Source of the DNA: a virus
Strand: one strand, 5' to 3'
Length of the DNA: 64,000 bases
Virus record (IMG/VR): IMGVR_UViG_3300046542_000291
Coordinates: 51,641-115,640 of that record
Shown here: positions 29,004-63,812 of the stretch, in pieces
Numbering within the stretch: the first letter of the stretch is position 1
Layout of the letters: each line of letters begins with the position of its first letter
Position numbers and translations under genes: made by a program
The notes under the pieces: model-generated
What the model was told of the DNA's origin: nothing
What the model saw: the letters and a program-made list of their open reading frames with translations, nothing else
Database searches by the model: none

Positions 29004-29068
29004 GCGGTAAAACTCCTGGGTACTACTGCTAATGGCCTCTCTCGGTAAAATCCGGAGAGTGATTTGTT

Positions 29069-30344: not shown

Positions 30345-30378
30345 TCACCTCTAGAGTATCACTCTGATAGGTATTTGT

Positions 30379-30651: not shown

Positions 30652-30985
30652 GGAGCGCTACTCCCGTCACGACTTGAATGAACATCTCCTTGCGTTCCCG
30701 TTCGTCCGTTAAAGGACCAACGTAAAACACCAAGTGAGGTTGTCCGGTAAAGTCAGGCTGCATGTATTCAGTGTACGCAATCCCTGCAGCCACTAAGTGA
30801 TGCCGACGACGATTGGCTGTGCGGTTAGGGCACATGTCTTCATCGGCCAGCATATAGAAGCTGTGCTCTCCATAAGAGAACTTCCCTTCCCCCTCACAGG
30901 GTTCGGTTGGAGGCAATCGCCACCAATCCTGTTTAACAGAGCCGTCGTTAACGACCCCCATGTATCCGACTGAGTTCAATGGCAT
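30638..30985 (-). CDS. hypothetical protein (115 aa)
   Basis: ORF-track ORF. Confidence 0.5.
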   Translation of the reverse strand: MPLNSVGYMGVVNDGSVKQDWWRLPPTEPCEGEGKFSYGEHSFYMLADEDMCPNRTANRRRHHLVAAGIAYTEYMQPDFTGQPHLVFYVGPLTDERERKEMFIQVVTGVALREGC

Positions 30986-31505: not shown

Positions 31506-31536
31506 AGTAGCTTCCTTTTATAGTAGACGGCATAGA

Positions 31537-31556
31537 GCTACTCCCGAAGGAGCAGC
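31537..31556 (-). terminator. UUCG-loop hairpin (GCTACTCC-CGAA-GGAGCAGC, one mismatch)
   Basis: Hairpin family; directly after the SPFH gene. Confidence 0.45.
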
Positions 31557-31568
31557 ACTACACGTGGA

Positions 31569-32429: not shown

Positions 32430-32770
32430 TTAGCATTTTCCTTAACAGCGTTTTCGAGGGTTTTCTTGAAGCTTTCTTCCGCAGAAGCTTTGTTGGTACC
32501 GGTGGTAGCAGACGCCTTTGGTTCAGGCACTGTGTAATCCGGAGCATCAAAGCTTGCCCGAGGCAGAGAACTTTGCTTGTGACCGATGTTGACGTTCCAG
32601 GCAACCAGTACGGCCAGCGCAATCACCGAAATCCATACCCGCTGAGGCTTACCCAGCTGGACGATTTTGTTCTTGGTGAAGATGAGCCAACCACTGACCG
32701 CCAGGGTAAGTACCAGGTCAATAACGAACTTAACCGGGCTACCGGAGAAGTACATTGCGAAGAGATCCAT
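32426..32770 (-). CDS. small two-TM membrane protein (114 aa), possible NfeD-like partner of the SPFH protein
   Basis: Two hydrophobic helices then a soluble Lys/Ala-rich tail; 4-nt overlap with the SPFH gene start. The partner role is inferred from the usual SPFH-NfeD operon architecture. Confidence 0.5.
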   Translation of the reverse strand: MDLFAMYFSGSPVKFVIDLVLTLAVSGWLIFTKNKIVQLGKPQRVWISVIALAVLVAWNVNIGHKQSSLPRASFDAPDYTVPEPKASATTGTNKASAEESFKKTLENAVKENAK

Positions 32771-32833
32771 GGGATTCCTTAGAGTGTGATGTCAGAGGGC
32801 TAGTAACACAGTATGACTAAGCCCAGTATTTTG

Positions 32834-33055
32834 TTACCGTAAAGCTTTTGCCGTAATGAACCTTACATTTTTGGTCCTGGCCATGAAACCTTTTACCCGG
32901 TCAGCCATAGCCCGTATTTCTTCCTTGGAGGGCTCACATGCTCTCTTTGGCAGAAAGGCGCTGTCAGGGTAGTCCACAATCACAAAACCGTTCACAATGC
33001 TTACAGGGCAGTTACCGAGCAACATAGGCCACCTATGAGTTAATGGAAGCAGCAA
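32834..33055 (-). CDS. hypothetical protein (73 aa)
   Basis: ORF-track ORF. Confidence 0.4.
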   Translation of the reverse strand: MLLPLTHRWPMLLGNCPVSIVNGFVIVDYPDSAFLPKRACEPSKEEIRAMADRVKGFMARTKNVRFITAKALR

Positions 33056-33302
33056 ACGCTTCCGAGATCAGGCCGCCATCACGAATGATGCCTTCGTTAG
33101 CCAGGGTATCCACGGCAGTCCACATGGCCAGACCGATGACGTTGGTCACGATGTTCTCCACCCGCTTTTGTACTTCTGGATCATCGAAGCGGAAATGGCA
33201 CCGGCTGTCTGTGGCGTAGTTCTTAACCAGGTGATCTTTTGCCTTGGTCAATTGCTCAACCATTTTAGCACTGTCGTCAACTGGTTCATCGTTGTCGTGC
33301 AT
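33033..33302 (-). CDS. paralogue family member (89 aa), C-terminus ...ISEAFAASINS
   Basis: ORF-track 33033..33434 trimmed to ATG with AGGGGAA RBS located just after the stop of the upstream gene. Confidence 0.55.
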   Translation of the reverse strand: MHDNDEPVDDSAKMVEQLTKAKDHLVKNYATDSRCHFRFDDPEVQKRVENIVTNVIGLAMWTAVDTLANEGIIRDGGLISEAFAASINS

Positions 33303-33312
33303 GTCGTTCCCC

Positions 33313-33672
33313 TTAGGAATTAACCATTCGGAAGTGTTCGCACAGATTGCCCGCGATACTGGCGTTCTCTTCAACGAACGGGAGCCAGTTACCACCAGCT
33401 TCGATCGCTTCCTGTTTTTCAGTTTCGCCCACATCGGGCATCATGTTGAAGCCTGGGCAATTGGGATGATCGCCATCCAGGATCATGAAGATCCGGTCGC
33501 ACATGCCCGTAGCTACCGCCAGTGCCAGCTCCGCCGAATCATCGATGGCCTGAATGGCCGGAGAAGCCAACAGGTCGTCGCGTTCTGCTTTCACCGTATC
33601 AATGAACAGTTCGGTGACTTCACTGAAAGCAGCTTCACGGGATTGACCATTACCTTCGAAGTACACAGTCAT
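33313..33672 (-). CDS. hypothetical protein (119 aa); C-terminus ...CEHFRMVNS, possibly a distant family member
   Basis: Trimmed to the ATG that overlaps the upstream stop (ATGA). Confidence 0.5.
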   Translation of the reverse strand: MTVYFEGNGQSREAAFSEVTELFIDTVKAERDDLLASPAIQAIDDSAELALAVATGMCDRIFMILDGDHPNCPGFNMMPDVGETEKQEAIEAGGNWLPFVEENASIAGNLCEHFRMVNS

Positions 33673-48225: not shown

Positions 48226-49542
48226 TTATGCCGCTTTGAGAAGGGGCAATGTGGGGATGGATGCAATAAAGGCATCCGGGTCACGGCGATGTTCAAGGAA
48301 CAACGCTTGCAGGTCACAGCCCGCTATGTCCTCGAAACACCCACTGAATTCGTAGGTATGCTCCGGGAACACAACATGGATGTACTCGCGTACTTCTACA
48401 TCGGTCAAGTAACCGATTTCCATCAGGTGGTCCACTCGACCTTTACGAACTACCGCATCATCGATCTTGTCGATGTGGTTGGTAGTCATGAAGATCACCG
48501 TGCCGTTCAGCGAAACCACCCCGTCCAACACGTTGAGCACTTTGCTCAGGGTCAACCGGGAGAACTCTTCGTTCAGGGCTTCGAAGATGTTTGCTTCCGC
48601 AACTTTCTTCTTGGCTGGCGCCGCCGGTAAAGCACCGAGTGTTTCCACCGGTTCAACCTTTGGCTTCTTCGGTGTACGCGCCTTGAAGGCAGCCGAACTG
48701 TCGAAGTCTTCGATCAACACCACCGAGTTCGGGGGCAGGTGACTGAGGGCTTTCTCGAATGACGTATCGTCCATCGAGTTGATGTTGATGGTGCAGATGT
48801 TCTTGCCGAAGTGGGCAGCCAGTGCCTTGATGATACTGGTCTTGCCTGTACCTGGCTTACCGTGGATAACAAACGTCGACTTGTAAGCCATGCCACGTTC
48901 GTTGTACCACTCTTCACTTTCGTAGAACTGTTCCAGCTCGAAGATCAACTTATCCTTCGTAGCTTTGTTCATCGCTACCGTCTTGAGAGGACGCTTCTTG
49001 ATCTCACACAGGTACTGCCAGCCTTGATCACCGGTGTACGTATAGATGCGGGACTTCAGTGAGTTCTCTTTCGGCATGAACGAACTGACCAGGTCCTTCA
49101 ACACTTGTTGATTACGACCCCAGGTGAAAATCGTGACGCGTTCTTTCTCGTTGGTTGACCCTTGACTGTTCAATGCTTCTTTCTTGAACCAGTACAGGCG
49201 TCTCTTATAAACGAAGAAGTGTGTGCCGAAACCAGGGCCTATAATTGTCCGGCTGTTGGGTGACTCCAAGCTGATGTTCCGCGAGTAGCGTGACCAGGGT
49301 TGTTCACAGAACCACTGCATGAAGGACGTGAAGTGAACACGGTCTTCTGACCAAGCGGTGGCGTTGTTGAACGTCAGGCTGGTCATGCATTGTTTCAGTG
49401 TGGCCGAGTACACCGTTTTGGGCACCTGCCGCAGTATCGCGTACAGGAACCCCATTAGGCCAGCAAGGACGATGCCTGCTGCCCAGGGGGAAACCTTGTT
49501 GAATGTCAGGTATTGCTGCTGAAGCCAATCAATAAATTCCAT
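48226..49542 (-). CDS. membrane-anchored AAA+ ATPase, BCS1-like (438 aa)
   Basis: N-terminal TM helix plus a BCS1-N-like region. Walker A IHGKPGTGKTSII, Walker B VVLIEDFD, arginine-finger region. Confidence 0.75.
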   Translation of the reverse strand: MEFIDWLQQQYLTFNKVSPWAAGIVLAGLMGFLYAILRQVPKTVYSATLKQCMTSLTFNNATAWSEDRVHFTSFMQWFCEQPWSRYSRNISLESPNSRTIIGPGFGTHFFVYKRRLYWFKKEALNSQGSTNEKERVTIFTWGRNQQVLKDLVSSFMPKENSLKSRIYTYTGDQGWQYLCEIKKRPLKTVAMNKATKDKLIFELEQFYESEEWYNERGMAYKSTFVIHGKPGTGKTSIIKALAAHFGKNICTININSMDDTSFEKALSHLPPNSVVLIEDFDSSAAFKARTPKKPKVEPVETLGALPAAPAKKKVAEANIFEALNEEFSRLTLSKVLNVLDGVVSLNGTVIFMTTNHIDKIDDAVVRKGRVDHLMEIGYLTDVEVREYIHVVFPEHTYEFSGCFEDIAGCDLQALFLEHRRDPDAFIASIPTLPLLKAA

Positions 49543-49610: not shown

Positions 49611-51392
49611 TTATGCAGCTTCGCGCAGGGTTGCACGAACTTCTTCGAAGGTCACTTCGTTCGGGAACGTGCCGTCTTTGTAGATCGGACGCAGTTCACC
49701 CGAGTGAGTGTCGAGGTCAGCGATTTCGAACTTCTGCTCTTGGAGCAGCTCAAAGTCACCGGCTTCGTTCTTCACAACCTTCAGGAAGCCCTTGGCCGAC
49801 TTCTTGTTGGTTTCGCCTTCGGTCTTCGGCGCCTTGAACAGCTCAACGAACACGTCGTCCACTTGAACGGCGGTAGCCTTGATGGCGTAGCCGAAGGTGT
49901 CACGAGTGTTGTGCTGATAGGTGTACGAACCGATACCCAGAACCCAGTTGCACGAAGCGAAGCCTTTCTTCATCAGGCGACGCATGATTTCCTGGGTACG
50001 TTCCACAGTGATCGAATCACCGTAGATCAGGCCAACACGTTCGTGCAGCACTTTGAAGCCCTTGTCGGTCATGGTGCCACCGAAAGTGTTCCACAGGCAT
50101 TCCACCGCACCGATCTGTTCGGCGTTCAGTTCTACCGGAGCCCACAGGTAGCCCAGAGCCGTGTAGTACTTCTCGGCGTCTTCAGCACTGATCGGATTTT
50201 CGTAGCGGGTTGCTTTGTACGTCATGCCGTTCAACAGAACGTACTCGACGTCTTTCGCTTTGCCGTTGTTGACCAGTTCGCTGAATTCCAGCGAGTTGTG
50301 AACTTCCACACCGCAGATGACTTCAACAGGATCACCGGAATCCGGACGGAACACCACTTTGGCCAGGCCGTTGGCGTCTGGTTGACGAGCCAGGATTTCT
50401 TCCTTCAGGGAAGGGGCAACAATGGTCAGGACACCCCAGAAGTCGAAGCTGTCGCAGACCAGGCTGATGATGCCAGTAGGACACTTGACGGTAATGGCAT
50501 CCAGGATGAACTGACGCTCGGCCAGCAGTTGCGCTTTGCCGTATGCATCGGGATCGAGGTCACCACCAGTCAGGCCTTTTTCCAGCAGCCACTTGGTCAT
50601 GTTGTACAGGATGTTCGAAGTAGCAACGGCGTGTTCGGTAGCACGCACCGATACAGCCAGGAACTCGACGTCGCTGTTGGCGAAGTACATGTCTTCGGCG
50701 TAGTCGATGGCCGGCAGGGTATCGGTACCCACGAAGCTGGTCAGGTGACCGGCGCCAGTACGAGCAGCATCTTCAGGACCGGACAGGCCACGGAAGGCGA
50801 AGTCATGCCCTTGCAACGCAACGAAGTCACGAGGCGAACCAGTCAGGTCAGCGAAGTGTTCCAGGATGCGACGGTATTCGTAAGCGATGGTGGCGTTGCA
50901 GACCATTTTCCAGATCAGCGACGACATCAGGGTTTCCAGGTAGTTCACTACCCAGAAGAATTCCGGTACGGTGTTGTAGATCACGTAGCCCGGAACGTTC
51001 ATGTTCAGGCGAGAGCCTTCCGGTACCGACAGGATGGTAACCGGTAAGTAACCCAGGTCATGCAGTGCTGCCATGGCTTCGATGTCAACCATACCTTCAC
51101 CGAGGTAGTTCTTCATGCGGCGAGCGTAGCGACGGATCACTTGCTCTTTCGGCTTGCTGAAGAACGAATCGTGCCACAGGCCGTGAACTTCACGCATCAC
51201 GCCTTGGATACCGAACCAGACGACTTTGCTATCCCAGAGGTAGGACTGGGACTTGCTGCCCTTGAACAGACGGTCTGCACGTGGAGTGCCGTTACCGTAG
51301 GCGAAGTTGGTGCCGTTCGGGTACAGAGGGCCGTGACCCATTTTGTAACCGTCTGCTGCAGTCGGGCCAAACAGTTTGAAAGAAGTGCTCAT
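49611..51392 (-). CDS. nadV: nicotinamide phosphoribosyltransferase-family enzyme (NadV/Nampt-like; could be a Namat-type variant), 593 aa
   Basis: Conserved Nampt blocks including VFRPDSGDP and the GS...DSFD region. ORF-track 49611..51443 trimmed to ATG with AAGGAAA RBS. Confidence 0.85.
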   Translation of the reverse strand: MSTSFKLFGPTAADGYKMGHGPLYPNGTNFAYGNGTPRADRLFKGSKSQSYLWDSKVVWFGIQGVMREVHGLWHDSFFSKPKEQVIRRYARRMKNYLGEGMVDIEAMAALHDLGYLPVTILSVPEGSRLNMNVPGYVIYNTVPEFFWVVNYLETLMSSLIWKMVCNATIAYEYRRILEHFADLTGSPRDFVALQGHDFAFRGLSGPEDAARTGAGHLTSFVGTDTLPAIDYAEDMYFANSDVEFLAVSVRATEHAVATSNILYNMTKWLLEKGLTGGDLDPDAYGKAQLLAERQFILDAITVKCPTGIISLVCDSFDFWGVLTIVAPSLKEEILARQPDANGLAKVVFRPDSGDPVEVICGVEVHNSLEFSELVNNGKAKDVEYVLLNGMTYKATRYENPISAEDAEKYYTALGYLWAPVELNAEQIGAVECLWNTFGGTMTDKGFKVLHERVGLIYGDSITVERTQEIMRRLMKKGFASCNWVLGIGSYTYQHNTRDTFGYAIKATAVQVDDVFVELFKAPKTEGETNKKSAKGFLKVVKNEAGDFELLQEQKFEIADLDTHSGELRPIYKDGTFPNEVTFEEVRATLREAA

Positions 51393-51405
51393 TACTTTGT
51401 TTTCC

Positions 51406-52281
51406 TTACGCATTGATCCAGGTGAGTTTGTTATCGACAACACCGTCTGGGCGAGTACTGCCCTGTGCTGTCGGATGGAACGAGTTGGTGGTGTAGACGT
51501 GGTCGTACTTTTCAGTAACCAGGTCGAAACCGTACGAGAAGATCCCGTGCGTTACCAACAGTTCCAATCGTGCTGGATTATGCTTGCGGATTTCTTCAGC
51601 CAGTTGGATGAAGGTCCGTCCACCATCACAGATGTCGTCACAGACCAGCAGTCGTTTGCCAGTTACATCGGCATCGAACTTGGTCTTGGTGATTTCCATC
51701 GTTTCCAGGTCACGCTCTTTAGTAGCCGTGATGTAACCAGCGCAGCCCAGGTGAGCAGCCAACGCTTTCACTTTCTTGACAGCCCCTGCATCAGGAGCCA
51801 CCAGCCAGGTATCGTGCAGTTCGTTTGCCGTAGCATCCAACATGTGCACGATGTCAGCCTGGGTCTTGACGATCACGCGGTTGATCAACGCCGGCGTAGT
51901 GTCGCTGTGCGGGTCCAAAATGGTCACACTGACGAACTCACAGAGGTTGATCAACTTCGCTGCTACCGCAATACCCAACGACTCCCCGGGGTTACACACG
52001 CGGTCCTGCCGGGCGTAAGGGACATAAGGGATATATGCGCTTACCGGTACGTCGGGACGAATGCGACGGATCGCATCGGTAACGTGCAGTAAAGCGAGGA
52101 AGTCAGTTGGGGTACGGAGGTTGGCCATGACTTGAATGTCCATGCAACCGCGGATTTTGTTGTGGAACTCTTTCGGAATAAGTGGGTTAACTTCCCCACC
52201 TTTGAACGTGCTCACGTCAACGATAGTCTGCGCCACTCCCCAGTGGTCGCCATTGCCGCGTCGGATACTTAAACGAATCAT
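51406..52281 (-). CDS. prs: ribose-phosphate pyrophosphokinase-family enzyme (PRPP synthetase, or ADPR-pyrophosphokinase-type homologue), 291 aa
   Basis: YARQDR motif and PRPP-binding loop LLVCDDICDGGRTF; immediately upstream of the nadV-like gene. Confidence 0.85.
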   Translation of the reverse strand: MIRLSIRRGNGDHWGVAQTIVDVSTFKGGEVNPLIPKEFHNKIRGCMDIQVMANLRTPTDFLALLHVTDAIRRIRPDVPVSAYIPYVPYARQDRVCNPGESLGIAVAAKLINLCEFVSVTILDPHSDTTPALINRVIVKTQADIVHMLDATANELHDTWLVAPDAGAVKKVKALAAHLGCAGYITATKERDLETMEITKTKFDADVTGKRLLVCDDICDGGRTFIQLAEEIRKHNPARLELLVTHGIFSYGFDLVTEKYDHVYTTNSFHPTAQGSTRPDGVVDNKLTWINA

Positions 52282-54360: not shown

Positions 54361-55704
54361 TTAGATCCCGTTGGCACCACACGACTTCAGTACGGACTGA
54401 AGGGTGGCATTGGTGGTTGACCCGCGTTCAAAGATTGCAATGCGGAAGTGTTTGCTCAGCTCGGTGAGTACATCATCCAGCTTGGTAGCCGGATAGAGAT
54501 TGTTGCCACCGTCTGGGAGTTGCTGCATGAACACGGCGTCCTCTTTGATCCCCACGCCGCCGACCAGATAATTACAGATCTGTTGCACGAGGGCCGTTTT
54601 ACCGGAGTGAGGAGCCGCGACGATTGCGATGTTGGTGACGCCATGTGCGAGGTCGCGGACGGGGGCTGGATAGACGCGCATGGCTTCGTCCAAAGGGAGT
54701 GGGCGTGCCGGATCTACCGAGAATCGCTGAACGATACGGTGCTCACTCACAATGTACTCTTTGGTGGGAACATAGTTCTTCACCGATTCCATCAGAGCAT
54801 CACGACCCATCAAGCCAATGTCAGCTTGCAGATCCTGGGCCACTACTTCAAAACCAGCGTCGCTCAGCATGTGTGCCAGCTTCGCCGACAAAGCCGTTTT
54901 ACCCGAACCCGTTTCACCGGTGATGATGATAGCCACTTGTTGCTTTTCTTTTGGCTTCTCTTCAACCACACGTCGCGCCACTGGAGCAGCCAACGCACGG
55001 ATTTGCATCCGACTGACCTGAACAAGGCCAGCCGACATGACGAACGGATCGCTACCACTGTAGAGCAGGATCAAATCACCCGCTTCCATCTTGCGCCCAC
55101 GGGGCTCACCACCTGGATGACTCGCCGGTGGATGCCCACCATTGAAGTACCACACACCTTCCCATTGTGTCAACGTTTTCGAATCGACCCAGTTGGTAAA
55201 TGTAGCCACAGCGTTGGTAGTAACACCAATACCCACATGGCCTTCTTCGTCGTTGAAGTAGACACCTTCATAGGAATGCTCCAGTGCGTCAGTGATTTTG
55301 ATAGCCGTGTGATTAGCACGCTTGTCTTCTGGCGAAGTGATCGAGAACTTGGCGTTAGCCCTTGAACGACTGTAGTGTTCTGGATCACCGTCGGGCTCAC
55401 TGAGGATCAACACATCCCCAACATAAACCTGGATGTTTCGGGTGGACCCCTGACTGTTGATGAGGCGGGCGTATACGCTGAACTCACGCCCGCCATGGAG
55501 GGCAAAGAACTCCAGACGATAGACTTTCTGCAACACAGCAAACAGCGCTTCAGCCGCAGCGCTGGTGTATGCCAGTTCCACCACCGCTTTACCCTCAAAC
55601 ACCGAGACGGCTTTGATGAGTGCCCCTTCCATCGTTACAGCTTTGGCGTCAGATGGACGATGCTGTTCGATGCGGATACACGGAAACTTAATTGGGTTTT
55701 GCAT
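54361..55704 (-). CDS. P-loop NTPase-domain protein with two Walker-A motifs (447 aa)
   Basis: GETGSGKTAL and APHSGKTAL in the C-terminal half; beta-rich N-terminal half; no specific family recognised. Confidence 0.6.
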   Translation of the reverse strand: MQNPIKFPCIRIEQHRPSDAKAVTMEGALIKAVSVFEGKAVVELAYTSAAAEALFAVLQKVYRLEFFALHGGREFSVYARLINSQGSTRNIQVYVGDVLILSEPDGDPEHYSRSRANAKFSITSPEDKRANHTAIKITDALEHSYEGVYFNDEEGHVGIGVTTNAVATFTNWVDSKTLTQWEGVWYFNGGHPPASHPGGEPRGRKMEAGDLILLYSGSDPFVMSAGLVQVSRMQIRALAAPVARRVVEEKPKEKQQVAIIITGETGSGKTALSAKLAHMLSDAGFEVVAQDLQADIGLMGRDALMESVKNYVPTKEYIVSEHRIVQRFSVDPARPLPLDEAMRVYPAPVRDLAHGVTNIAIVAAPHSGKTALVQQICNYLVGGVGIKEDAVFMQQLPDGGNNLYPATKLDDVLTELSKHFRIAIFERGSTTNATLQSVLKSCGANGI

Positions 55705-55730: not shown

Positions 55731-56534
55731 TTACTCGGCAGCTTTCAATTCACTACCAGGTTCGATTATGAGCCATCCGAACGTGTCCGTGCGGAGATCT
55801 TCTGTGTCGCGTCTTGCGCCATTGAATGGATTGTAGAACCAGGCAACCGTAGGGAATGTGCACCGGAAGATATCTACGGTCCAGCCACTGTCCATCTTCG
55901 ATCCAGTGTGTGGATGAAAGGCAAGCTTAGCCCCATGGATATCGCGCTTCTCCGGATAGATCTTACCGCCGTTGGCAACGATTTCCTCACGCTTGCATTT
56001 CTTCATGAGGTCGTTGAAAGGCATGCCCGAGTCGGCGGCGCAGATACGTACGTCGACAACAATACCGCGTTCCACCAGGCGTTGAATTTGATCAACCACA
56101 CGCACTTCGGTGTAGTCGATATTCAAATCATCGTCAAGTGAAGTAATGATGATGCGTGCTGGATCAACGTCGAGTTTCATCAACTCCAGCTTAACGTACT
56201 CCATAAGAGTACTCTTGCCAGTATTTGGTAATCCGATCGAGAAGAGACTCATCTGACTGCGAACTGACGGCTGCAACACCACCGATGGACGGATACGGTG
56301 ATCCGGTTTGTCAACGTCAGCCTGGAACAGCCCCATCGACAAACCATGTTCGCTGAACCGGAAGTTCATCCCGCGCAAACGACCCATGTCAGCGATGTTC
56401 TCATCCCCGATCGCAGTTACGCCGAAATTGACGGTCAAACCTGCTTCACGCAGCTTCTTGGTGATCCAGGCAGCGAAGTGACCTTTACCATGGCCAACAT
56501 GTGCGCTAATGATCAACGTTACTTTATTTTCCAT
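55731..56534 (-). CDS. P-loop protein with tandem nucleotide-binding motifs, possible nucleoside/nucleotide kinase (267 aa)
   Basis: ISAHVGHGKGH and GLPNTGKSTL (Walker A) about 100 aa apart. A kinase role in the nucleotide/NAD context is inference only. Confidence 0.6.
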   Translation of the reverse strand: MENKVTLIISAHVGHGKGHFAAWITKKLREAGLTVNFGVTAIGDENIADMGRLRGMNFRFSEHGLSMGLFQADVDKPDHRIRPSVVLQPSVRSQMSLFSIGLPNTGKSTLMEYVKLELMKLDVDPARIIITSLDDDLNIDYTEVRVVDQIQRLVERGIVVDVRICAADSGMPFNDLMKKCKREEIVANGGKIYPEKRDIHGAKLAFHPHTGSKMDSGWTVDIFRCTFPTVAWFYNPFNGARRDTEDLRTDTFGWLIIEPGSELKAAE

Positions 56535-56578: not shown

Positions 56579-57952
56579 TTAAACTGCCACTGGAGCAGGG
56601 ATATGGGGATGGCTATCGTAACCGACCAATTTAAAGTCGTTGATATCCATGTCCAGAACATCACGCTTATTCGGATTTATCCAAATAGTGCACGGCTGTT
56701 TTGGTGTACGGGTTTGTTGCAGAGCCACCTGGTCCATGTGGTCCAGATAGATGTGGGCATCACCAACTTGATGAATCAGTTCTTCAGCCCAGTAGTTGCA
56801 CTCATGAGCCAACAGGTGAGTGAGAATCGAGTACTGGGTGAGATTGAAGGGCGCGCCCAAAAAGATGTCATTGGAACGCATCCAGAACAAACACTTCAAT
56901 GCACGACGTGGAACCTTCATGCTGTCGAGGTCGAGGTGTTGTTCCTCTTCGGTGCGGTCAGGAAAGCGGAGCATCTTGCTGAGGTTCATGTACATACCGT
57001 ACAGAGGCTCCTCAGGATGGTCTGCTGCCTGTTTGTAGATCTCGGCCTGGTGACGATCATGGATCTTGTCGTAGATCGCCCAGCGCTCTTCCAGGGACAG
57101 CACACGGGTCCAGAACTGAACCATGGCATGGCATGGCGGCAGGGCTTGTTGATCCACGTAAGCCGGATTCCAGAAACACAGAATGTGACGTCGGGAGTCA
57201 GGGCTGTTCTTCAGCGAGTGCTGCAGATCTTTAAACTGGTCGATGGTTCGGGTAATGATGAACTTACCCTTGTTCCGGCAAAGCTTCTTGTAACCCAGCT
57301 TCTGCATCTCCGGCCATTCTTTTGGCGAGATAACGCGGGTGTCTTCCAGGTTACGGATCATCTTGCCGTAAACGTGACCCAGAGGACCTTCAGTCACTTC
57401 CTGGTCGGAAATACCAATGTGGCGGAAGAAGTCCTTCCACAACGGATGTTCCTTGTCATCGTGCATTGCCTGGGCATTGTCCGTCGACGTCTCGATCAAA
57501 TAGTTCGGGATCATCTTGTCGCTACCAGGCACTTCAGTGTAGTTGACGTAAGAATGAAACTTCTCGCCAACATTACCAAAGTGAATACCCGCAGGATAAC
57601 CCTTCAGTTCGATCTCACCCCAACCGAAGTGCTTGCGCTTGTATTGCTTGCGCATTTCAGCCGCAGTACGAGGACGGTACTTGGCCCCTTCTGGCTTGAC
57701 CCAGTCATCCCAGATGCCACAGTTGTTGTCTTTCAGGTACTTGACGTTGGTGTCGCCGGAGAGCACCCACTTGAGTTCGACCTTGTTGTCGTTCTCAGGT
57801 ACGAACTTTGTCGTTGGTCTGGCTACGGTCCAGTCGGAGATGTCGTAGCGATGCATGGCGCCGAAGCTGGAGATCGTTCCTGTATTGGTCCGGTCCCCCT
57901 TGGCCACGCCGTGCTTCAAAGTGTTTTCCTGGTACTGAAGGTATTGATGCAT
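56579..57952 (-). CDS. thyA: thymidylate synthase-family enzyme with two large insertions (ThyA or dUMP/dCMP hydroxymethylase-type), 457 aa
   Basis: GDRTNTGT N-terminal motif, catalytic LPPCH, DIFLGAPFN...YSILTHLLAHEC block, and C-terminal HPHIPAPVAV. About 90-aa and 85-aa insertions relative to 264-aa E. coli ThyA. Confidence 0.85.
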   Translation of the reverse strand: MHQYLQYQENTLKHGVAKGDRTNTGTISSFGAMHRYDISDWTVARPTTKFVPENDNKVELKWVLSGDTNVKYLKDNNCGIWDDWVKPEGAKYRPRTAAEMRKQYKRKHFGWGEIELKGYPAGIHFGNVGEKFHSYVNYTEVPGSDKMIPNYLIETSTDNAQAMHDDKEHPLWKDFFRHIGISDQEVTEGPLGHVYGKMIRNLEDTRVISPKEWPEMQKLGYKKLCRNKGKFIITRTIDQFKDLQHSLKNSPDSRRHILCFWNPAYVDQQALPPCHAMVQFWTRVLSLEERWAIYDKIHDRHQAEIYKQAADHPEEPLYGMYMNLSKMLRFPDRTEEEQHLDLDSMKVPRRALKCLFWMRSNDIFLGAPFNLTQYSILTHLLAHECNYWAEELIHQVGDAHIYLDHMDQVALQQTRTPKQPCTIWINPNKRDVLDMDINDFKLVGYDSHPHIPAPVAV

Positions 57953-58245
57953 CGTATTTCCCTAGTAGTTCTGTAACAGCAAAATTGGAATTGCGGAGGC
58001 TATACGAATTGATGAGTGCACCCAAGGCAGCAGCCATCGACACTTGATCCGGTAGCCCAATGAAACCTTTTGGTGCCTCCATCAACCAAGGCCTGACGCG
58101 CCTGAAAGGAGGCATGCAATAAAAGCCATCGATGTCTGTGTAAGGCTTAGGGGCCTCAAGGCAACGATAACTGATAAGGTACTTCTTTACAGGACCAGGT
58201 AAGGCCCACGGGGTTTGTCGCCGTTCATAGCACATCGCGGCACCT

Positions 58246-58818
58246 TTAAACGAAGCCACCTACCTGCAGGACGGCGTAGGGGATGATGATTGCTTCTGGG
58301 TCCATACCCGAACGCTCGAAGTACAACAGCGCTGGGAAGTCATGGTCCTTCGGAATCGTAGCCAAACTACCCGGCAGATTAGCGTCGTCAAACGCTTGGT
58401 CCAGACCAATACGGTCATTGACCCGATAAGTCCATGGAGCCATCTTGATGAAGTGGACTTTCTTTGGAGTTTCCACTTCCAGGTCCATCGCCAGGGTTGC
58501 CCCTTTTGGCAGTGGCCGAAGCTTGGTCAGCAACCAGGTACCCAGATGAAGATCCAGGGTCAGGTAAGCTGCCATCTGATCACCGTCAGCGAAACGCTGG
58601 AAGATGGTCACAGTAAAGCGTCCGTCGGCGCTTGTAGTGCCACCACGGACGTAATAGTCATTGGAGGCCAGTGGCATGCCACGAAGATAAACGCCAGCCT
58701 CTGAGAGCTTCACAGACTTGTCACGGATACCATCAACACCAGCGGACGCATCCAGTGGCATAGAAACTTGTAAAGTGCGCGCTTTGGTAGTGGCGTCGCA
58801 TTCAGTGCAGCAAGCCAT
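58246..58818 (-). CDS. hypothetical protein (190 aa)
   Basis: ORF-track 58246..58872 trimmed to ATG with AAGGAGG RBS. Confidence 0.55.
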   Translation of the reverse strand: MACCTECDATTKARTLQVSMPLDASAGVDGIRDKSVKLSEAGVYLRGMPLASNDYYVRGGTTSADGRFTVTIFQRFADGDQMAAYLTLDLHLGTWLLTKLRPLPKGATLAMDLEVETPKKVHFIKMAPWTYRVNDRIGLDQAFDDANLPGSLATIPKDHDFPALLYFERSGMDPEAIIIPYAVLQVGGFV

Positions 58819-58872
58819 TGGGGCCTCCTTGCTAAAAGAAAAGGATGAAAGGGGGAGCCAGGCTCCCCGCAT

Positions 58873-59613
58873 TCAATATTTGCCGTGGATGTGGAAGATC
58901 AAGCTGATGTTCTCATCGTGACGCAGAGCGATCAGGCCGTGTTCCAGTTCGTAGGTTTGCTTGTCCATGTCGAATGTGATGAACGTGTGGTCCATCGCAG
59001 CGTCGATACGGAAGCGCGCTTTACGTGCATCATCGCTGGCAACCGGAACAACCTGGATGTCATTGATCAGCGTGGTGCCTTCAAAGACACCTGTCGCCGT
59101 AACACGTTCGATAGTAGCTTGCTCATGGGGCTCGATGAAACGAGTTTCCCCCACCAGCACACTGCCGTCGATGGTGAGCTGCCGACGCAGTTCGTCATTG
59201 CCGCGATTCTCTGGCAACCGCATGGGTTCCAGGATGAGGTTGACCTGTGCGGTCTTTGGTCCGTTGTGCATTTGGTTGATGTTCTCGCTTGGTTCCACTT
59301 CTACCAACTTTTCCGGGAAGCATGCGCTAACACTAATGCACATCTCGACACCATGTATATTGAATACATAGTTGTCTTTTGCAAACCAGGCACTCTCCGA
59401 CTTATGAATCACATCGGGGTAAATTGGATCGTCGAACATGTTCAGGAAGGTGACTCCCGAAAGGCCGGTAATGATCCAGCCCTCGGGAATGTTACTGGTG
59501 TTGACAACGGCACCGTCACGGGTAATGTCTACCGGGTAGGTGACCAACTGAGCCAGCAGGTTGGTGTGTGGGTGATACACAACATCAAGACGGTGGTTCT
59601 CGGGCTCTTGCAT
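58873..59613 (-). CDS. hypothetical protein (246 aa)
   Basis: ORF-track ORF. Confidence 0.6.
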   Translation of the reverse strand: MQEPENHRLDVVYHPHTNLLAQLVTYPVDITRDGAVVNTSNIPEGWIITGLSGVTFLNMFDDPIYPDVIHKSESAWFAKDNYVFNIHGVEMCISVSACFPEKLVEVEPSENINQMHNGPKTAQVNLILEPMRLPENRGNDELRRQLTIDGSVLVGETRFIEPHEQATIERVTATGVFEGTTLINDIQVVPVASDDARKARFRIDAAMDHTFITFDMDKQTYELEHGLIALRHDENISLIFHIHGKY

Positions 59614-60323
59614 CAGTCGAGTCTCGGTTTGAGGAAGATGGCTTTCGCCGCCCCCACGGCTTGAATGTGATCGAACAGAGCGCTGTTGCCAACGTTCTGC
59701 AAGACCTGCAGTTGTTCTTCGTTGATGGGTGAACCATTCCAGTTGAACCCAGCACGATCCTTGATGTCCCAGAAGGTTTCCAGGAGACGGTTAGGGATCA
59801 AATGCACACAGTGAATAGTAAGCACTTTCTCCGTGGTCGGAAAACGACGAAGGTAGTTGGTATCCTGCGCATGGAGCGTAGTCCCCACAACAATGGTTTC
59901 TACGTTCTCTTCCAACACATTAAGAGGAGTCTCGTAAAACTCCCCACCGCGTGTTTCGTACCGACAGCGATAACTGGCCAAAACGTCTTTGTTAACGTAA
60001 CGGATGTAGTCCTGGATCGGGGTTCCCGTTCCGTCATCCATGGTGCTCTTGGCCTGGATTTCTTCGGTCGTGTTCAGCGCCATGCGCAGCACGTCGAATG
60101 TGTCTTGGCCGGTCATGGTGATAGCCGTGAAGGCGAACTGAATTTTGACGAGTTCCTTGGAATCTTTGAACGCATCTTCCGGCGCATACAGAATGTGCTG
60201 GGCGAAGGTGTCTTGGATTTCGTAGATTTCGCTATCGTTCATCGACACCTCCTTCGTCAGGCGTGCCAAGTTCAGGAATTCACCAACAGGATTATTGCGA
60301 ATCCCAGCGAAGAGTTCAATCAT
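59613..60323 (-). CDS. hypothetical protein (236 aa)
   Basis: ORF-track ORF. Confidence 0.6.
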   Translation of the reverse strand: MIELFAGIRNNPVGEFLNLARLTKEVSMNDSEIYEIQDTFAQHILYAPEDAFKDSKELVKIQFAFTAITMTGQDTFDVLRMALNTTEEIQAKSTMDDGTGTPIQDYIRYVNKDVLASYRCRYETRGGEFYETPLNVLEENVETIVVGTTLHAQDTNYLRRFPTTEKVLTIHCVHLIPNRLLETFWDIKDRAGFNWNGSPINEEQLQVLQNVGNSALFDHIQAVGAAKAIFLKPRLD

Positions 60324-61087
60324 TGTTTACCGCCTTGAAGGAGGGTGAGTTTAGGGGGACCCTTATAACGCGAAGGGCCTTTGAATACAGGGGTGGTTGG
60401 AAGATCACCGAAGTCCAGCAATGGGCTTGGCATTTCCAGAGCCGCGGAGAGGAAGTCTTCTTCCGTCCCAGTGAAGCCTTTTGCACGGGCCAGGTCGTAA
60501 GCCGACATGTGGTCACCCTTCGAGGCAACCTGCGTAGTGCGTTCTTCGAGCGATGGACGCTTCATCAACGCATCCCGCACCTGACCAGCCTTTTCACGGA
60601 AAGTCGCAGTGAACTTTTTCGGATAAACGTCGTTCGCTGCACCCGGTCCCATGAACGGTGGGTTACCAATGTCGTCTTTCTGCTCCGGGGTGAATACCGG
60701 AAACAGGTCCAGCGGAATACCACCGTTGTTAGCCATCATCTCCAGTTCCGCTTCCACCCCAGGGAACGGCGCCAGAGTTGTGTGCATTTCGTCCAGTGGA
60801 ACTTGAACGGCCAGCAGAGAATGCCAAGGGGCTTCCACCTGTTGTACGACACCACCAGATTTGCAGCTGAAACTGAAACCTTCGTCGGTGTACTTCAGGT
60901 CACGAATGGCCTGCATCGACATGTTGATTACAGAAACCCCGGTGTCATCACAGACGGAGTTCAGGTATGCGTTGTCGGAATCCCAGGCACGAATCACTAC
61001 GTTCATGCGCCCGAAACCGTTCTCACCAAACCACTCGTAAAAAGCGTTCAGGATGACGTGGTTCAGCGAGGTCAAAGGCTTGCTCAT
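60320..61087 (-). CDS. SspB-like ClpXP adaptor homologue (255 aa)
   Basis: N-terminal 110 aa align to stringent-starvation-protein-B substrate-binding domain: LNAFYEWFGENG, VINMSMQAIRDL, FSCKSGG, VPLDEM vs E. coli LRAFYEWLLDN, VLNIAPRAVGNL, FNARFGG. Followed by a long flexible acidic/Pro-rich tail. Confidence 0.6.
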   Translation of the reverse strand: MSKPLTSLNHVILNAFYEWFGENGFGRMNVVIRAWDSDNAYLNSVCDDTGVSVINMSMQAIRDLKYTDEGFSFSCKSGGVVQQVEAPWHSLLAVQVPLDEMHTTLAPFPGVEAELEMMANNGGIPLDLFPVFTPEQKDDIGNPPFMGPGAANDVYPKKFTATFREKAGQVRDALMKRPSLEERTTQVASKGDHMSAYDLARAKGFTGTEEDFLSAALEMPSPLLDFGDLPTTPVFKGPSRYKGPPKLTLLQGGKQ

Positions 61088-61099
61088 GTTTACTCCTAG

Positions 61100-61348
61100 T
61101 TAGTTATGTTCTTCAACTGTAGGCTCAAGAATCCACTTGAAGGGAATACCGAGTCTATCGACGTACCCCAAAAGGGTTTCCAAACGTACAGCCCCGTCTT
61201 CGCGGTTTACTTTGAGGCGGCTATAAGTCTCCCTGCTAATGCAGAGAAGACTGGCCATTTGCTTGCCGTACAGGCGGTGCTTCTTTTGGTAACTAAACAC
61301 GGCATCGATCAGCATCTGCTTCACTGCCGGGATTTGGTCACTCAACAT
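61100..61348 (-). CDS. small HTH (XRE/Cro-like) transcriptional regulator (82 aa)
   Basis: MASLLCISRETYSRLK matches a helix-turn-helix. Confidence 0.5.
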   Translation of the reverse strand: MLSDQIPAVKQMLIDAVFSYQKKHRLYGKQMASLLCISRETYSRLKVNREDGAVRLETLLGYVDRLGIPFKWILEPTVEEHN

Positions 61349-61388
61349 ATTTGGAACCCCAGTATATTTACGAGATTGTATTCAACGT

Positions 61389-61397
61389 TGTAATGTA
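61389..61397 (-). promoter_or_regulatory. variant of the promoter-like motif (CTACATTAC), 41 nt upstream of the HTH gene
   Basis: One mismatch to CTATATTAC; not preceded by a UUCG hairpin. Confidence 0.3.
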
Positions 61398-61621
61398 GAC
61401 TTGAAACTTTTTGCGTTAATTCTTGCGGAACAGGCCCAACATACCGGCGACAGCGCCGAGCATAATGAGGCTACCGATAGCCATCAGACCGTATTGAAAG
61501 AAGTCGTGCATTGTTCACCCGATTGGATAATGGAAGAGGCCGAAGATACCGGCCAAGGTTAGGACAACCCCGAGAACGTAAACGTCACCGCCGGGGTATT
61601 TGTATGGGTTAAAGCAGCCAT

Positions 61622-61870
61622 TCAGGACGACACACAGTACACCCGCAAAGAAGCAGACCAATGAAAGCTGGAACATTCGATATTCACCAAGTAGCCCGAG
61701 ATAGCGAAGAGGGCAACAGCCGCCCCCATCAAGTAATAAGAGAACGTTCGTAATTCTTTTAGTTCGTTACGCCCATCATCTCCGTGAGAAGTTACTACCC
61801 AGAAGACCATCCCGAAACACAGGCAGATTACCCCGGTGGAAAACATTAGAGCTGTCCAGTTAATATCCAT
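61622..61870 (-). CDS. small membrane protein (82 aa; frame near the 3' end uncertain)
   Basis: ORF-track ORF. An alternative overlapping frame also encodes a hydrophobic peptide, so there is a possible frameshift or two small genes. Confidence 0.4.
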   Translation of the reverse strand: MDINWTALMFSTGVICLCFGMVFWVVTSHGDDGRNELKELRTFSYYLMGAAVALFAISGYLVNIECSSFHWSASLRVYCVSS

Positions 61871-61886
61871 GTTTAGTCTCTAATAA

Positions 61887-61911
61887 GCGACATAACGCCT
61901 CCCCGGAGGGA
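61887..61911 (-). terminator. hairpin GCCTCCC-CGGA-GGGAGGC (UCCG loop in minus sense)
   Basis: Hairpin family variant; after the stop of 61922..62329. Confidence 0.5.
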
Positions 61912-61921
61912 GGCTTATGTT

Positions 61922-62290
61922 TCAGTATGTCAAAACCACAGCCTTGCCGTAGTCGTTCATCATGCAGGAATTGTACGACGCCATGTAGGTGTCCATTGGG
62001 GAAAGTTTGTTATTCCACACTGGATCGACGTCTTGGATTACTTTAGGAAGAACACTGTAAAGAACGTTATCTTTATTCTTCACAACGTAGCCCTTGAGAG
62101 CCTGGAGATTTTTACGCCAAGACTCTTCAGTCTCGCCGCGCTGCTTTGCTTCCGTGGTAGCCTTGGTCATTAGCGCCAAGCCTTCACAGTAGTTCAGATC
62201 AGCCATCACCGCTGTAGCCATTGCTTGCATTGGAACTGAGAACAGAACCAGTACAACCAAAAGCCGCATTACGTGTGTTAAACATTGCAT
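61922..62290 (-). CDS. secreted protein (about 122 aa)
   Basis: ORF-track 61922..62329 trimmed to signal-peptide start MQCLTHVMRLLVVLVLFSVPMQAMA. Confidence 0.5.
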   Translation of the reverse strand: MQCLTHVMRLLVVLVLFSVPMQAMATAVMADLNYCEGLALMTKATTEAKQRGETEESWRKNLQALKGYVVKNKDNVLYSVLPKVIQDVDPVWNNKLSPMDTYMASYNSCMMNDYGKAVVLTY

Positions 62291-62328
62291 CACGTTGTAC
62301 CTTGGTTGAGGGATCAGAATATAGGACA

Positions 62329-62829
62329 CTACTCGGAGTCTTCACCGGACATATAGAAGAGAGCATTGTTGTGATTAAACCCATCGGTAGCGACACGGAA
62401 GATGTAACTCAACCGACTTATTCCGTCACCAATGTAGTCGTATGCGCTGATGCCACAATAGAGCCGGTTAGGGTTCTTGGCATCCAATGTACTCACCAAC
62501 GAGTCGATGTACTCCATGGCGGGCACAAAGCCAAACGTTTTCTCGTCCTGTCTCCAAGAGTCATTCGTTAGGCTGGTAATGTACCGTTCCGTGACGTCAT
62601 CGCTTTGATCTTGACAGAAGCCTGCAACCGCAGACAAGATGTATAGATCGGGATCGAGGTCCATGTGTGCATACGTTTCATTAAACGCGTACAACCACTC
62701 ACCTTTCTCAGCAATGATCTTTTCTAACCACCCGTGTTCAGCCGTACCATTAACGACAACGTCTGTAAAGAGCTCAGGGCAAGCTGCCGCAAGATACTCT
62801 TTACGAATAATGCGAAACCGTTGAGCCAT
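62329..62829 (-). CDS. hypothetical protein (166 aa)
   Basis: ORF-track ORF. Confidence 0.55.
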   Translation of the reverse strand: MAQRFRIIRKEYLAAACPELFTDVVVNGTAEHGWLEKIIAEKGEWLYAFNETYAHMDLDPDLYILSAVAGFCQDQSDDVTERYITSLTNDSWRQDEKTFGFVPAMEYIDSLVSTLDAKNPNRLYCGISAYDYIGDGISRLSYIFRVATDGFNHNNALFYMSGEDSE

Positions 62830-63003: not shown

Positions 63004-63420
63004 CTAGATATTTAACCGATAATTCCAGTCCCCGTGATGGGTACCGTTATTAAAGGCTTCGATCTGATGCGGCTCCATACCTGTCGCGTGCAGGTGGAAC
63101 GTCATGTTCAAGCGACGGGTCATGTACCGCTCCGACAACTCTACCGCATAAGTGTCGTCATTGCAGTTAATGGTTACCTTCGCCACGTGGATGGGTTTCA
63201 TCTTGCACGACTTATCCCAGATGTCAAAAACCTTAATGTCCTCGTACCGATCCAACTTGGGAACAATACGAAAAGCAAAAATGGGAACTTCGTTCACACC
63301 ACTCACTCGGTCTGGTGTAATCCAAACCGGATGGCCAATGTGCTTCTGACAGAATCCACGGATACTGTCATTGAGGTCTCCCTTCACCCCACTGTACAAG
63401 GGAAGATGAACGACGATCAT
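63004..63420 (-). CDS. hypothetical protein (138 aa)
   Basis: ORF-track ORF. Confidence 0.55.
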   Translation of the reverse strand: MIVVHLPLYSGVKGDLNDSIRGFCQKHIGHPVWITPDRVSGVNEVPIFAFRIVPKLDRYEDIKVFDIWDKSCKMKPIHVAKVTINCNDDTYAVELSERYMTRRLNMTFHLHATGMEPHQIEAFNNGTHHGDWNYRLNI

Positions 63421-63812
63421 ACAGCGATACTCCCTTGATACTGTTGCTTACCGAGTTCTTGAGTAATCTCCAAGACAGCGGTAAATGGGCGGGTCTTCTG
63501 GTTAGCCTTGGGTTTAACCCACCAATACTTTTTCTTCTGCATGTCGAACTCGAGTTCAACCACAGGGGCATTGTCTTCCTCGTCGAAGAAGGTGAACACT
63601 GTACGGGCGGGTCGTTCAATAGGGACTTCCCGGTACCACTGAACCTTACTGACTTGTTGCATGTCAGGTGGGTAAGCGGTAGCCAGGATGTCTACGGATT
63701 CAAAACTGGATAGCTTGTCCCCGTAATGGGCGAGGCTGATCGGGTACCCGGACTTGGAGAAGTCCAAGAGGTAGTTCAACGTCACCAGCGTTTTGAGAAT
63801 CTTCGGTTCCAT
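63417..63812 (-). CDS. hypothetical protein (131 aa)
   Basis: ORF-track ORF. Confidence 0.5.
   Translation of the reverse strand: MEPKILKTLVTLNYLLDFSKSGYPISLAHYGDKLSSFESVDILATAYPPDMQQVSKVQWYREVPIERPARTVFTFFDEEDNAPVVELEFDMQKKKYWWVKPKANQKTRPFTAVLEITQELGKQQYQGSIAV

Follow-up and report, generated by a model that had tools for sequence, protein, structure and literature searches.

The question raised by this locus is whether a phage protein related to SspB, the bacterial ClpXP adaptor, docks on the ClpX of the host and, if so, what it brings there. The protein is encoded within the 64,000-nucleotide stretch of viral DNA analyzed here (hereafter, the window), and we assign a probability of about one half to the interpretation that it is a diverged tethering adaptor of the SspB family, from a phiKZ-like nucleus-forming jumbo phage of Pseudomonas, that docks on host ClpX with cargo chosen by the phage. 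The ORF at positions 60320..61087 (minus strand) is a genuine gene: in agreement with the first-pass annotation, down to the exact coordinates, the ORF list and the sequence give a complete coding region for 255 aa followed by a TGA stop, with a Shine-Dalgarno-like AGGAG (61093..61097, minus strand, by reading of the sequence) located 5 nt 5' of the ATG. A protein identical to this 255-aa product is encoded on a 310,396-bp JGI contig. A scan of positions 57800..62000 for sigma-70 promoters and terminators yielded nothing exceeding shuffled sequences; the sigma-70 scan has little power because phages of the phiKZ type rely on their own RNA polymerases.

[quoted passage not shown] As a single sequence, the protein is similar to SspB structures in the PDB over residues 5-107 (phmmer, E = 1.9e-4), and a profile based solely on the phage family retrieves SspB from the PDB (E = 5e-16) and no other significant match. 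The AF2 model reaches pLDDT values of 94-97 for residues 11-110, and the comparison of folds that had been suggested as a check resulted in a superposition of this predicted domain (pLDDT of at least 94) on SspB: the best 19 Foldseek matches in the PDB are all SspB, with TM scores of 0.75-0.82 and an rmsd of ~2.6 A. The N-terminal helix (residues 8-23) retains AFYEW, the beta-sandwich bears the ..VINMS..A and F..GG signatures, and an additional helix conserved in the phage family (residues 111-120) follows the FPxxE motif. The Pfam SspB profile (PF04386) is matched by 13 of the 20 members of the phage family; with 15.5 bits, the window protein by itself stays under the gathering score of 27. 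This score, along with a C-terminal peptide that is not significant on a strict scoring matrix for XB, the ClpX-docking peptide of SspB (see below), would be expected of chance resemblance or of a decaying relic, in which case the ORF would be no functional relative of SspB. The family profile and the fold, with a structural match exclusive to SspB, refute this explanation, to which we attach a negligible probability; moreover, full-length orthologues with conserved termini are present in many jumbo phages, the phiKZ orthologue is detected as a protein during infection, and the ORF itself is intact, is preceded by a ribosome-binding site and is translationally coupled to the next gene.

The relatives of the window protein came from an exhaustive HMMER search; a word-indexed protein search with this sequence returned only the query itself. 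Among the PHROG families, the best match is phrog_25970 (E = 1.1e-6; the profile is 302 positions long), and phrog_8945 is also matched (E = 3.6e-4); full-length tblastn matches include the homologues in phages PA1C, Psa21 and RVTF4 (E = 1e-12 to 5e-20). A search with E. coli SspB detected homologues in 78 phage records, phiKZ gp232 included, and a tblastn search of phage genomes with a short metagenomic SspB-like form (P0056) produced no match. The initial impression that SspB homologues had not been described in phages does not survive because such proteins have already been published and annotated. [quoted passage not shown] With the window gene, a recognized phage group gains a further, strongly diverged member; the gene is not a discovery in itself.

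Comparison with these systems places the window protein in an old, strongly diverged jumbo-phage branch. In this respect, it is unlike gp18 of the T4-like Pseudomonas phage pf16, also a phage-encoded SspB homologue but a recent, host-like one (128 aa, 53% identical to E. coli SspB, ending RKKPTLRVVK). RAY gp039 and the Ea35-70 group (PHROG 8945, 'stringent starvation protein SspB-like') are, like the window protein, SspB homologues of nucleus-forming jumbo phages; however, gp039 is shorter (150 aa), keeps 17 of the 40 conserved bacterial columns discussed below, compared to 12 of 40 in the window protein, and carries a canonical terminal XB peptide, KKPTLTVVK. The counterpart in phiKZ is gp232 (PHIKZ232, 302 aa; probably PHROG 25970), which occupies the same position between the homologues of PHIKZ229 and thymidylate synthase and has the same architecture and terminal block (...PSRPTGTPKLTVIKGGKK) at ~21% identity (BLASTP E = 1e-8). 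The linker of gp232 is different and longer, its XB core keeps V-I-K where the window protein has L-L-Q, and it lacks both the PLLDFG motif and the tail-fibre-type module that are present in the window protein. PHIKZ232 was found in the course of infection but not in virions, and its mNG fusion was distributed diffusely outside the shell (PMC10449902); the supplements of Fossati et al., which consist of tables per protein only, contain no pairwise evidence of an association between PHIKZ232 and ClpX. Bacterial SspB (E. coli P0AFZ3; P. aeruginosa PA4427/Q9HVY8; PF04386) is about 22-24% identical to the window protein and shares with it the N-terminal fold, the peptide core P-x-L-x-[VIL]-[VIL] and the general plan, namely, a folded cargo domain, a flexible linker and a short C-terminal ClpX-docking peptide (predicted in the window protein). 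The differences concern the tail, which is 135 aa long compared to about 25-55 aa in bacteria and contains an inserted repeat module as well as PLLDFG, a motif absent from bacterial SspB; the end of the protein, where GGK(Q) extends beyond the XB core, which itself has Q at the position of the terminal K that is invariant in the bacterial proteins; and the genomic location, a lytic jumbo phage as opposed to the sspA-sspB operon.

To characterize the cargo-binding surfaces, the diversity of bacterial SspB was taken from a scan of 41 genomes, given that E. coli SspB, used as the query of a word-indexed search, gave Enterobacteriaceae only. Among the 40 columns conserved in at least 90% of the bacterial proteins, the window protein keeps 12 and replaces 28. 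The retained positions are in AFYEW and ..LN..A and include F72, G78 and P86; RPY(10-12), R15, TP(27-28), RF(75-76), IYA(93-95) and ENG(97-99) are replaced, and the ARF block is gone as well. The R91/E92 pair that contacts the AlgU cargo in P. aeruginosa SspB is changed to P/L. The only strongly conserved surfaces of SspB are the ssrA-binding groove and the dimer interface (PMC9963277), so the 12 of 40 count pertains to these two surfaces jointly; efficient delivery by SspB, which forms a homodimer through its native domains, requires two tails, going by the reference list of the same article (PMC9963277). Because just 12 of the 40 near-invariant bacterial positions are kept, ssrA-tagged or RseA/MucA-type proteins appear to be unlikely cargo, and the role first ascribed to the protein, delivery of ssrA-tagged proteins, cannot be transferred from SspB. 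With its groove altered to this extent, the domain might bind nothing, which counts against an adaptor function.

The tail, 135 residues long, had been described as long, disordered, acidic and Pro-rich. It is indeed long and mostly disordered, with pLDDT of 44-65 across most of residues 121-255, and is rich in Pro (11%); however, it is not acidic, with 17 D+E and 17 K+R residues for a net charge of 0, compared to -12 for the tail of E. coli SspB. The first segment is a variable Pro-rich linker (residues 121-187, 60527..60727, minus strand; pLDDT 44-57 over residues 121-160) that differs in length and sequence across the phage family apart from LM.RKP..R, which corresponds to the semi-conserved LMKRPSLEER of the window protein (residues 174-183, 60539..60568, minus strand, from the family alignment).

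The tail ends with the conserved terminal block SRYKGPPKLTLLQGGKQ (residues 239-255, 60323..60373, minus strand, from the family alignment), in which the XB-like core PPKLTLLQ (residues 244-251) is followed by GGK(Q). Although the family members are only ~27% identical overall, this block is conserved as SRYKGxPxLT[LV]IQGGK, with GG invariant over 20 sequences, and the pattern typical of the long form from Pseudomonas phages, S-R-x-x-G-x-P-x-L-T-[LV]-I-x-G-G-K, is present in the window protein, phiKZ, PA1C, Psa21 and RVTF4. The bacterial XB consensus from the 41 genomes is [GK][RK]P.L[KRT][VI][VI]K (RPSLKVVK in Pseudomonas), and copies from the phage family, for example, GKPTLTVIK with 23 bits, score 19-23 bits on the bacterial XB PSSM, compared to a background maximum of 8.7 in 221 ORFs. 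Bacterial SspB docks on the zinc-binding N-domain of ClpX through its XB peptide, and, by this sequence comparison, the conserved terminal core P-x-L-T-[VL]-[IL]-[KQ] of the phage family coincides with that peptide. In P. aeruginosa SspB, ClpX binding is driven by residues 128-135, with the Kd changing from 27 nM to 179 nM upon Ala substitution (PMC13251409). Several phage homologues end exactly like bacterial SspB, in particular, those of RAY (KKPTLTVVK), pf16 (KKPTLRVVK) and pEa54 (SRPKLTIVK).

The window's own copy, PPKLTLLQGGKQ, is by the same comparison a weak XB variant. The first-pass annotation had placed the C-terminal end of the protein at the ClpX-binding site of SspB; this placement is borne out inasmuch as the end aligns with the conserved XB-type motif of the family, but not by PPKLTLLQ alone, which scores ~0 bits on the strict bacterial XB PSSM, a value equaled by 18% of the shuffled sequences. 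With BLOSUM smoothing, its score is reached by the tails of 4 of 220 background ORFs and by 72 of 5000 shuffled sequences (p ~0.015). The invariant bacterial [VI]-[VI]-K is represented by L-L-Q, and Q stands in place of the invariant K in most Pseudomonas-phage members of the family. Because the XB-like core precedes GGKQ, it is not at the extreme C-terminus, unlike in nearly all bacterial SspBs; short extensions beyond the XB motif are present in some bacterial-type SspBs too.

A tail of this kind could also act without delivering anything. The main rival explanation is that it merely occupies the N-domains of host ClpX as a blocker or decoy, inhibiting SspB-dependent and N-domain-dependent degradation, for example, by sparing phage proteins or by perturbing the turnover of FtsZ or of sigma-factor regulators. 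[quoted passage not shown] Competitive inhibition was proposed for pf16 SspB by its authors (PMC5587285), and the loss of most of the surfaces conserved in bacterial SspB also speaks for blocking; however, the N-domain fold is preserved in distant phages, with A60, G79, P87 and P109 nearly invariant in the family alignment among very distant homologues, which would be needless in a mere tail carrier. On balance, we consider blocking to be rather unlikely.

If the window protein is a tethering adaptor, it would act in the cytoplasm of the host, by analogy with its homologues phiKZ gp232 and RAY gp039, which are found outside the phage nucleus. The C-terminal tail would dock on host ClpX, and the remodeled N-domain would bring phage-chosen cargo, neither ssrA-tagged nor of the RseA/MucA type, to ClpXP for degradation; the occupancy of the ClpX N-domain would also put the phage protein in competition with host SspB. 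The literature searched contains no report of ClpX binding or altered degradation by any phage SspB-like protein. Conceptually, the predicted reprogramming of a Clp system resembles that by gp53 of Bacillus phage SPO1, which acts on host ClpCP through adaptor-like binding; gp53 has an unrelated fold and targets ClpC rather than ClpX, so that the parallel is an analogy only. Early phage proteins with shared C-terminal tags, the ...AFAESINT paralogues encoded at 27895..33434 in the window, had been suggested as proteins with a turnover scheduled in this way. The ...AFAESINT tails show no resemblance to ssrA (AANDENYALAA), XB or the SspB and ClpX recognition motifs tested, and nothing in the genomic context connects the two loci; we therefore reject these tails as SspB or ClpX degrons, and the suggested link is not upheld.

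The genomic neighborhood offers another candidate. The SspB-like gene corresponds in position to phiKZ gp232 within the PHIKZ222-237 block, with the same order and strand: homologues of PHIKZ223/224 (63004..63812) and PHIKZ229 (61922..62329) are located upstream, and the thymidylate synthase gene thyA, a PHIKZ235 homologue (56579..57952), downstream. The ATG of a conserved neighbor gene for a 236-aa protein (59613..60323, minus strand) overlaps the stop of the SspB-like gene (ATGA), and in Psa21 and RVTF4, a homologous gene for ~240 aa overlaps the SspB-like gene by 4 nt in the same way. The product of this gene has no match in Pfam or PHROG, its AF2 model, built from 6 sequences, is unusable (mean pLDDT 53), and a relation to phiKZ gp233 is possible (hhalign E = 1.4e-4, probability 52%); gene 427 of PA1C ('putative tail protein') was considered as a member of the same family and rejected (hhalign E = 0.14). 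We regard this neighbor as the foremost candidate partner or cargo of the SspB-like protein.

The gene pair of Psa21 and RVTF4 lies directly upstream of a gene for a BCS1-type AAA+ ATPase, and such an ATPase (48226..49542, with only the BCS1_N and AAA domains of Pfam) is encoded in the window as well. An arrangement of this kind would be consistent with an SspB-fold scaffold that acts on a receptor other than ClpX, be it the BCS1-type AAA+, the nuclear shell or another host hub, through the GGK-tail and/or PLLDFG, the XB likeness being ancestral. A conserved linkage was rejected, however, because the AAA+ gene is found in 162 phage records, many of which lack an SspB-like gene, and is not adjacent to the SspB-like gene in phiKZ (30 kb away) or in the window (11 kb); furthermore, BCS1-type ATPases are not known to have a ClpX-like zinc-binding N-domain. 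With regard to the shell, the enrichment of PHIKZ232 in a shell-enriched sample and its elution at high molecular weight favor such a scaffold, but the mNG-tagged protein is diffuse and not on the shell. The tail of the Pseudomonas-phage proteins is changed, with the invariant GG-K extension and Q for K in most members, and contains the extra conserved motif PLLDFG (residues 222-227, 60407..60424, minus strand, from the family alignment); nevertheless, several members have a core identical to that of bacterial XB, and the canonical XB is preserved at the C-terminus of homologues from phages of other hosts. On balance, we consider a different receptor to be quite unlikely. PLLDFG is conserved in most long-form members of the family, and a translation of the window in all six frames contains it once; the SspB paradigm assigns no role to this motif, which we count against an adaptor.

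SspB-like genes are common in nucleus-forming jumbo phages, the model phage phiKZ included. If docking on host ClpX is true, it would give these phages a simple handle to reprogram cytoplasmic proteolysis while the phage DNA and enzymes are shielded in the nucleus, and the cargo could indicate host factors that are important in infection. We also envisage, as an unlikely extension, that the long phiKZ-type SspB-like proteins are true cytoplasmic retargeting adaptors of chimalliviruses, with a specific host protein (for example, a defense or stress-response factor) or an early phage protein as cargo, the neighbor as co-adaptor or cargo, and GGK-XB and PLLDFG providing bivalent docking on ClpX or on ClpX and another hub. 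Retargeting, if true, would represent a variant of the adaptor code that evolved in phages, and it would be the first case in which a virus is shown to hijack ClpXP via an SspB homologue. Three features are offered for testing: the XB-type tail with its lineage-specific GGK extension, PLLDFG, and the conserved, translationally coupled neighbor.

Between the linker and PLLDFG, the tail of the window protein contains a short helical module of ~27 aa, KGDHMSAYDLARAKGFTGTEEDFLSAA (residues ~190-216, 60440..60520, minus strand, from the exhaustive search and alignment), which in the family alignment is an insertion unique to this protein. Most of the 157 matches in the exhaustive search cover only residues ~190-216, in many stretches. 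Large tail-fibre-like proteins with collagen repeats contain up to 19 copies of the module, the proteins that share it bear Collagen and Fibritin_C domains, and the window protein shows weak matches to tail-fibre families of PHROG.

The SspB-like gene occupies positions 60320..61087 on the minus strand, exactly where the first-pass annotation placed it, from an ATG start, with AGGAG 5 nt upstream, to a TGA stop, and encodes a protein of 255 aa (ORF list and sequence). The identical protein is recorded once, on a JGI metagenome contig of 310,396 bp. In a single-sequence search of the PDB, it matches ten SspB chains over residues 5-107 (E = 2e-4 to 5e-3); it scores 15.5 bits against Pfam SspB, under the 27-bit cut-off, and matches PHROG 25970 (E = 1e-6) and PHROG 8945, 'SspB-like' (E = 3.6e-4), a signal that is weak but consistent. 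An exhaustive HMMER search identified about 35 relatives (135-318 aa), and a family profile built solely from 20 phage-type sequences, 13 of which match Pfam SspB individually, hits SspB structures with E = 5e-16 and nothing else notable. The AlphaFold model (pLDDT 94-97 over residues 11-110) superimposes on SspB: the 19 best PDB fold matches are all SspB, from E. coli, H. influenzae, Agrobacterium and Caulobacter (target-normalised TM 0.75-0.82; the best at rmsd about 2.6 A), and everything ranked after them is at noise level. Because all 19 are SspB, this comparison, suggested earlier as a check of the fold, upholds the assignment: the N-terminal domain (residues ~1-120) is really SspB, the gene is a real member of the SspB family, and we regard chance resemblance or a relic as excluded.

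The accompanying claim that no phage SspB had been described does not stand. Gp18 of Pseudomonas phage pf16 has been modelled and proposed to compete with host SspB (PMC5587285); gp039 of Erwinia phage RAY, which lies outside the chimallivirus core genome, gives, as a GFP fusion, a diffuse cytoplasmic signal outside the phage nucleus (bioRxiv 10.1101/2023.02.24.529968); and GenBank carries SspB annotations for RVTF4, Churi and the Ea35-70 group. With E. coli SspB as the query, homologues are found in 78 phage records, mostly chimalliviruses, including phiKZ gp232 (PHIKZ232), the positional counterpart of the window gene. Since phage SspB homologues are thus published, annotated and grouped as PHROG 8945, the kind is already known, and the window gene adds a strongly diverged new member to the jumbo-phage SspB-like group that is already recognised; the question for the whole group is what its members do, and it is testable. 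In infected cells, PHIKZ232 was detected at high molecular weight, and its mNeonGreen fusion was diffuse; the protein was enriched in a sample enriched for the shell, and virions lacked it. No association with ClpX is reported in that study (PMC10449902). A 2026 jumbo-phage review mentions neither SspB nor ClpX.

The tail (residues 121-255) is mostly of low model confidence and Pro-rich (11%), in keeping with the disordered, Pro-rich extension described in the first-pass annotation, but its net charge is zero, so that 'acidic' is wrong. In the family alignment, the linker varies in length and sequence, and three conserved elements lie beyond it: LM.RKP..R (residues 174-183); PLLDFG (60407..60424, residues 222-227), which is conserved in most long-form members, where it precedes the XB-like block by 12-20 residues, and is absent from bacterial SspB and phiKZ gp232; and the terminal block SRYKGxPxLT[LV]IQGGK, with an invariant GG. 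The linker of the window protein also contains an inserted module of ~27 aa, SAYDLARAKGFTGTEEDFL (60440..60520, residues ~190-216), which is found in up to 19 copies in large collagen-repeat, tail-fibre-like proteins and accounts for most of the 157 matches in the exhaustive search. Vaguely similar short helical inserts occur elsewhere in the linker of PA1C-type relatives.

The bacterial reference for XB, the C-terminal ClpX-binding peptide of SspB, comprised SspB from 42 named gammaproteobacterial genomes, 41 of which end in [GK][RK]P.L[KRT][VI][VI]K (GRPSLKVVK in Pseudomonas, including P. syringae); in one Legionella SspB, the motif is internal. On a PSSM derived from these tails, the aligned phage-family copies (GKPTLTVIK, GKPKLTVIK) score 19-23 bits, against a background of 221 window ORFs with a best score of 8.7 anywhere and 1.7 in tails. 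Homologues from phages of other hosts, namely RAY gp039 (KKPTLTVVK), pf16 gp18 (KKPTLRVVK), Erwinia phage pEa54 (SRPKLTIVK) and Ralstonia phage FLC4-3B (GFLSVVK), end exactly like bacterial SspB; given these endings and scores, the phiKZ/PA1C/Psa21 lineage carries the XB core with a lineage-specific GGK extension. On the strict PSSM, the window copy, PPKLTLLQ, comes to about 0 bits, a value equalled by 18% of shuffles; a BLOSUM-smoothed score makes it the best 8-mer of the protein, but among 220 background tails 4 score as high, and among 5000 shuffles 72 do. Because this copy is degenerate, the proposal that the tail ends at the ClpX-binding peptide draws its support from orthology with the clear copies, not from the window sequence by itself. 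With the GGK extension and PLLDFG on one side and the clear XB copies on the other, the second rival reading, docking of the modified tail and PLLDFG on another receptor, seems distinctly improbable. The 188-aa SspB-like protein of Xanthomonas phage LucasX (LUCX_196), with the tail end ...MADFRARRKPSS, lacks an XB-type motif; either the ClpX-docking code would differ for Xanthomonas or this copy would not dock.

According to PMC9963277, strong conservation in SspB is confined to the ssrA groove and the dimer interface. Among 40 columns conserved at >=90% in the bacterial set, 12 are kept in the window protein, 14 in phiKZ gp232 and 17 in RAY gp039. The window protein retains AFYEW, the LN..A strand, F72, G78 and P86, which look like scaffold, and lacks RPY, R15, TP, RF, IYA and ENG; it has P/L at the positions of R91/E92, which in P. 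aeruginosa SspB contacts AlgU-MucA (PMC13251409). From the 12 columns kept and the P/L replacement, we infer that the cargo has probably changed relative to bacterial SspB; the protein should not be credited with binding substrates of the ssrA or RseA/MucA type. Such a surface, together with an XB-type tail, might also belong to a protein that does no more than block the ClpX N-domain, the main rival reading, which we consider rather unlikely. Residues 128-135 of P. aeruginosa SspB drive ClpX binding (PMC13251409). The fold, the architecture, the conserved motifs and the synteny are observed, as are, for homologues, expression and localisation; ClpX binding, delivery and cargo we infer. In the reading that we favour, at roughly even odds (about 0.5), the protein would act as a tethering adaptor, docked on host ClpX via its XB-type tail, and would carry phage-specific cargo to cytoplasmic ClpXP; competition with host SspB would be a side effect.

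At least five small paralogues (86-133 aa; 27895..33434, minus strand) form a tandem gene family with conserved C-termini (GKAFAESINT, AKAFAESINT, SKAFADAINS, ADAFVEAINS, SEAFAASINS). The family is real, but the proposed link of these tails to the SspB-like gene is unsupported: there is no sign that they act as a degron or have to do with that gene. The earlier reading thus survives in its structural part and loses this link along with the novelty claim.

DNA similarity of the window to phiKZ-like Pseudomonas phages is limited to scraps; despite this, the gene order is that of the PHIKZ222-237 block, with homologues of PHIKZ223/224 (63004..63812) and PHIKZ229 (61922..62329) and thymidylate synthase (PHIKZ235; 56579..57952). 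The SspB-like gene lies in a tight five-gene run on the minus strand (58246..61348; successive gaps 12, -4, -1 and 0 nt), in the order 82-aa HTH-like gene (61100..61348, minus strand; Pfam HTH_3 below cut-off), SspB-like, 236-aa, 246-aa and 208-aa genes, the last three with no assigned function; a 293-nt gap separates the run from thymidylate synthase. The 236-aa gene (59613..60323, minus strand) is translationally coupled to the SspB-like gene, the TGA and ATG overlapping by 4 nt as ATGA, and in Psa21 and RVTF4 its homologue follows with the same overlap. The 236-aa protein has no family match in Pfam or PHROG, and its AF2 model is of unusable quality; phiKZ gp233 may be a relative (hhalign E = 1.4e-4, probability 52%), and the RVTF4 homologue is named 'virion structural protein' in UniRef. 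A BCS1-type AAA+ ATPase (48226..49542, minus strand; Pfam BCS1_N and AAA; phrog_7485, function unknown), found directly downstream of the SspB-like/236-aa pair in Psa21 and RVTF4 only, was rejected as a linked partner because its homologues are widespread (162 phage records, including non-chimallivirus jumbo phages) and the phiKZ one, gp286, is 30 kb from gp232.

A perfect GC-rich hairpin, GCCTCCC-CGGA-GGGAGGC (61897..61914), lies in the 51-nt gap that follows the PHIKZ229 homologue and could mark a processing site or a transcript boundary. Two adjacent unassigned genes (54361..55704 and 55731..56534, minus strand) have P-loop NTPase motifs; thymidylate synthase is to one side of them, and the NAD-salvage genes (PRPP synthetase, 51406..52281; NAMPT, 49611..51443) are to the other. 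The 447-aa protein of this pair has two Walker-A-like GxxGxGKT sites and weak nSTAND3 and AAA matches.
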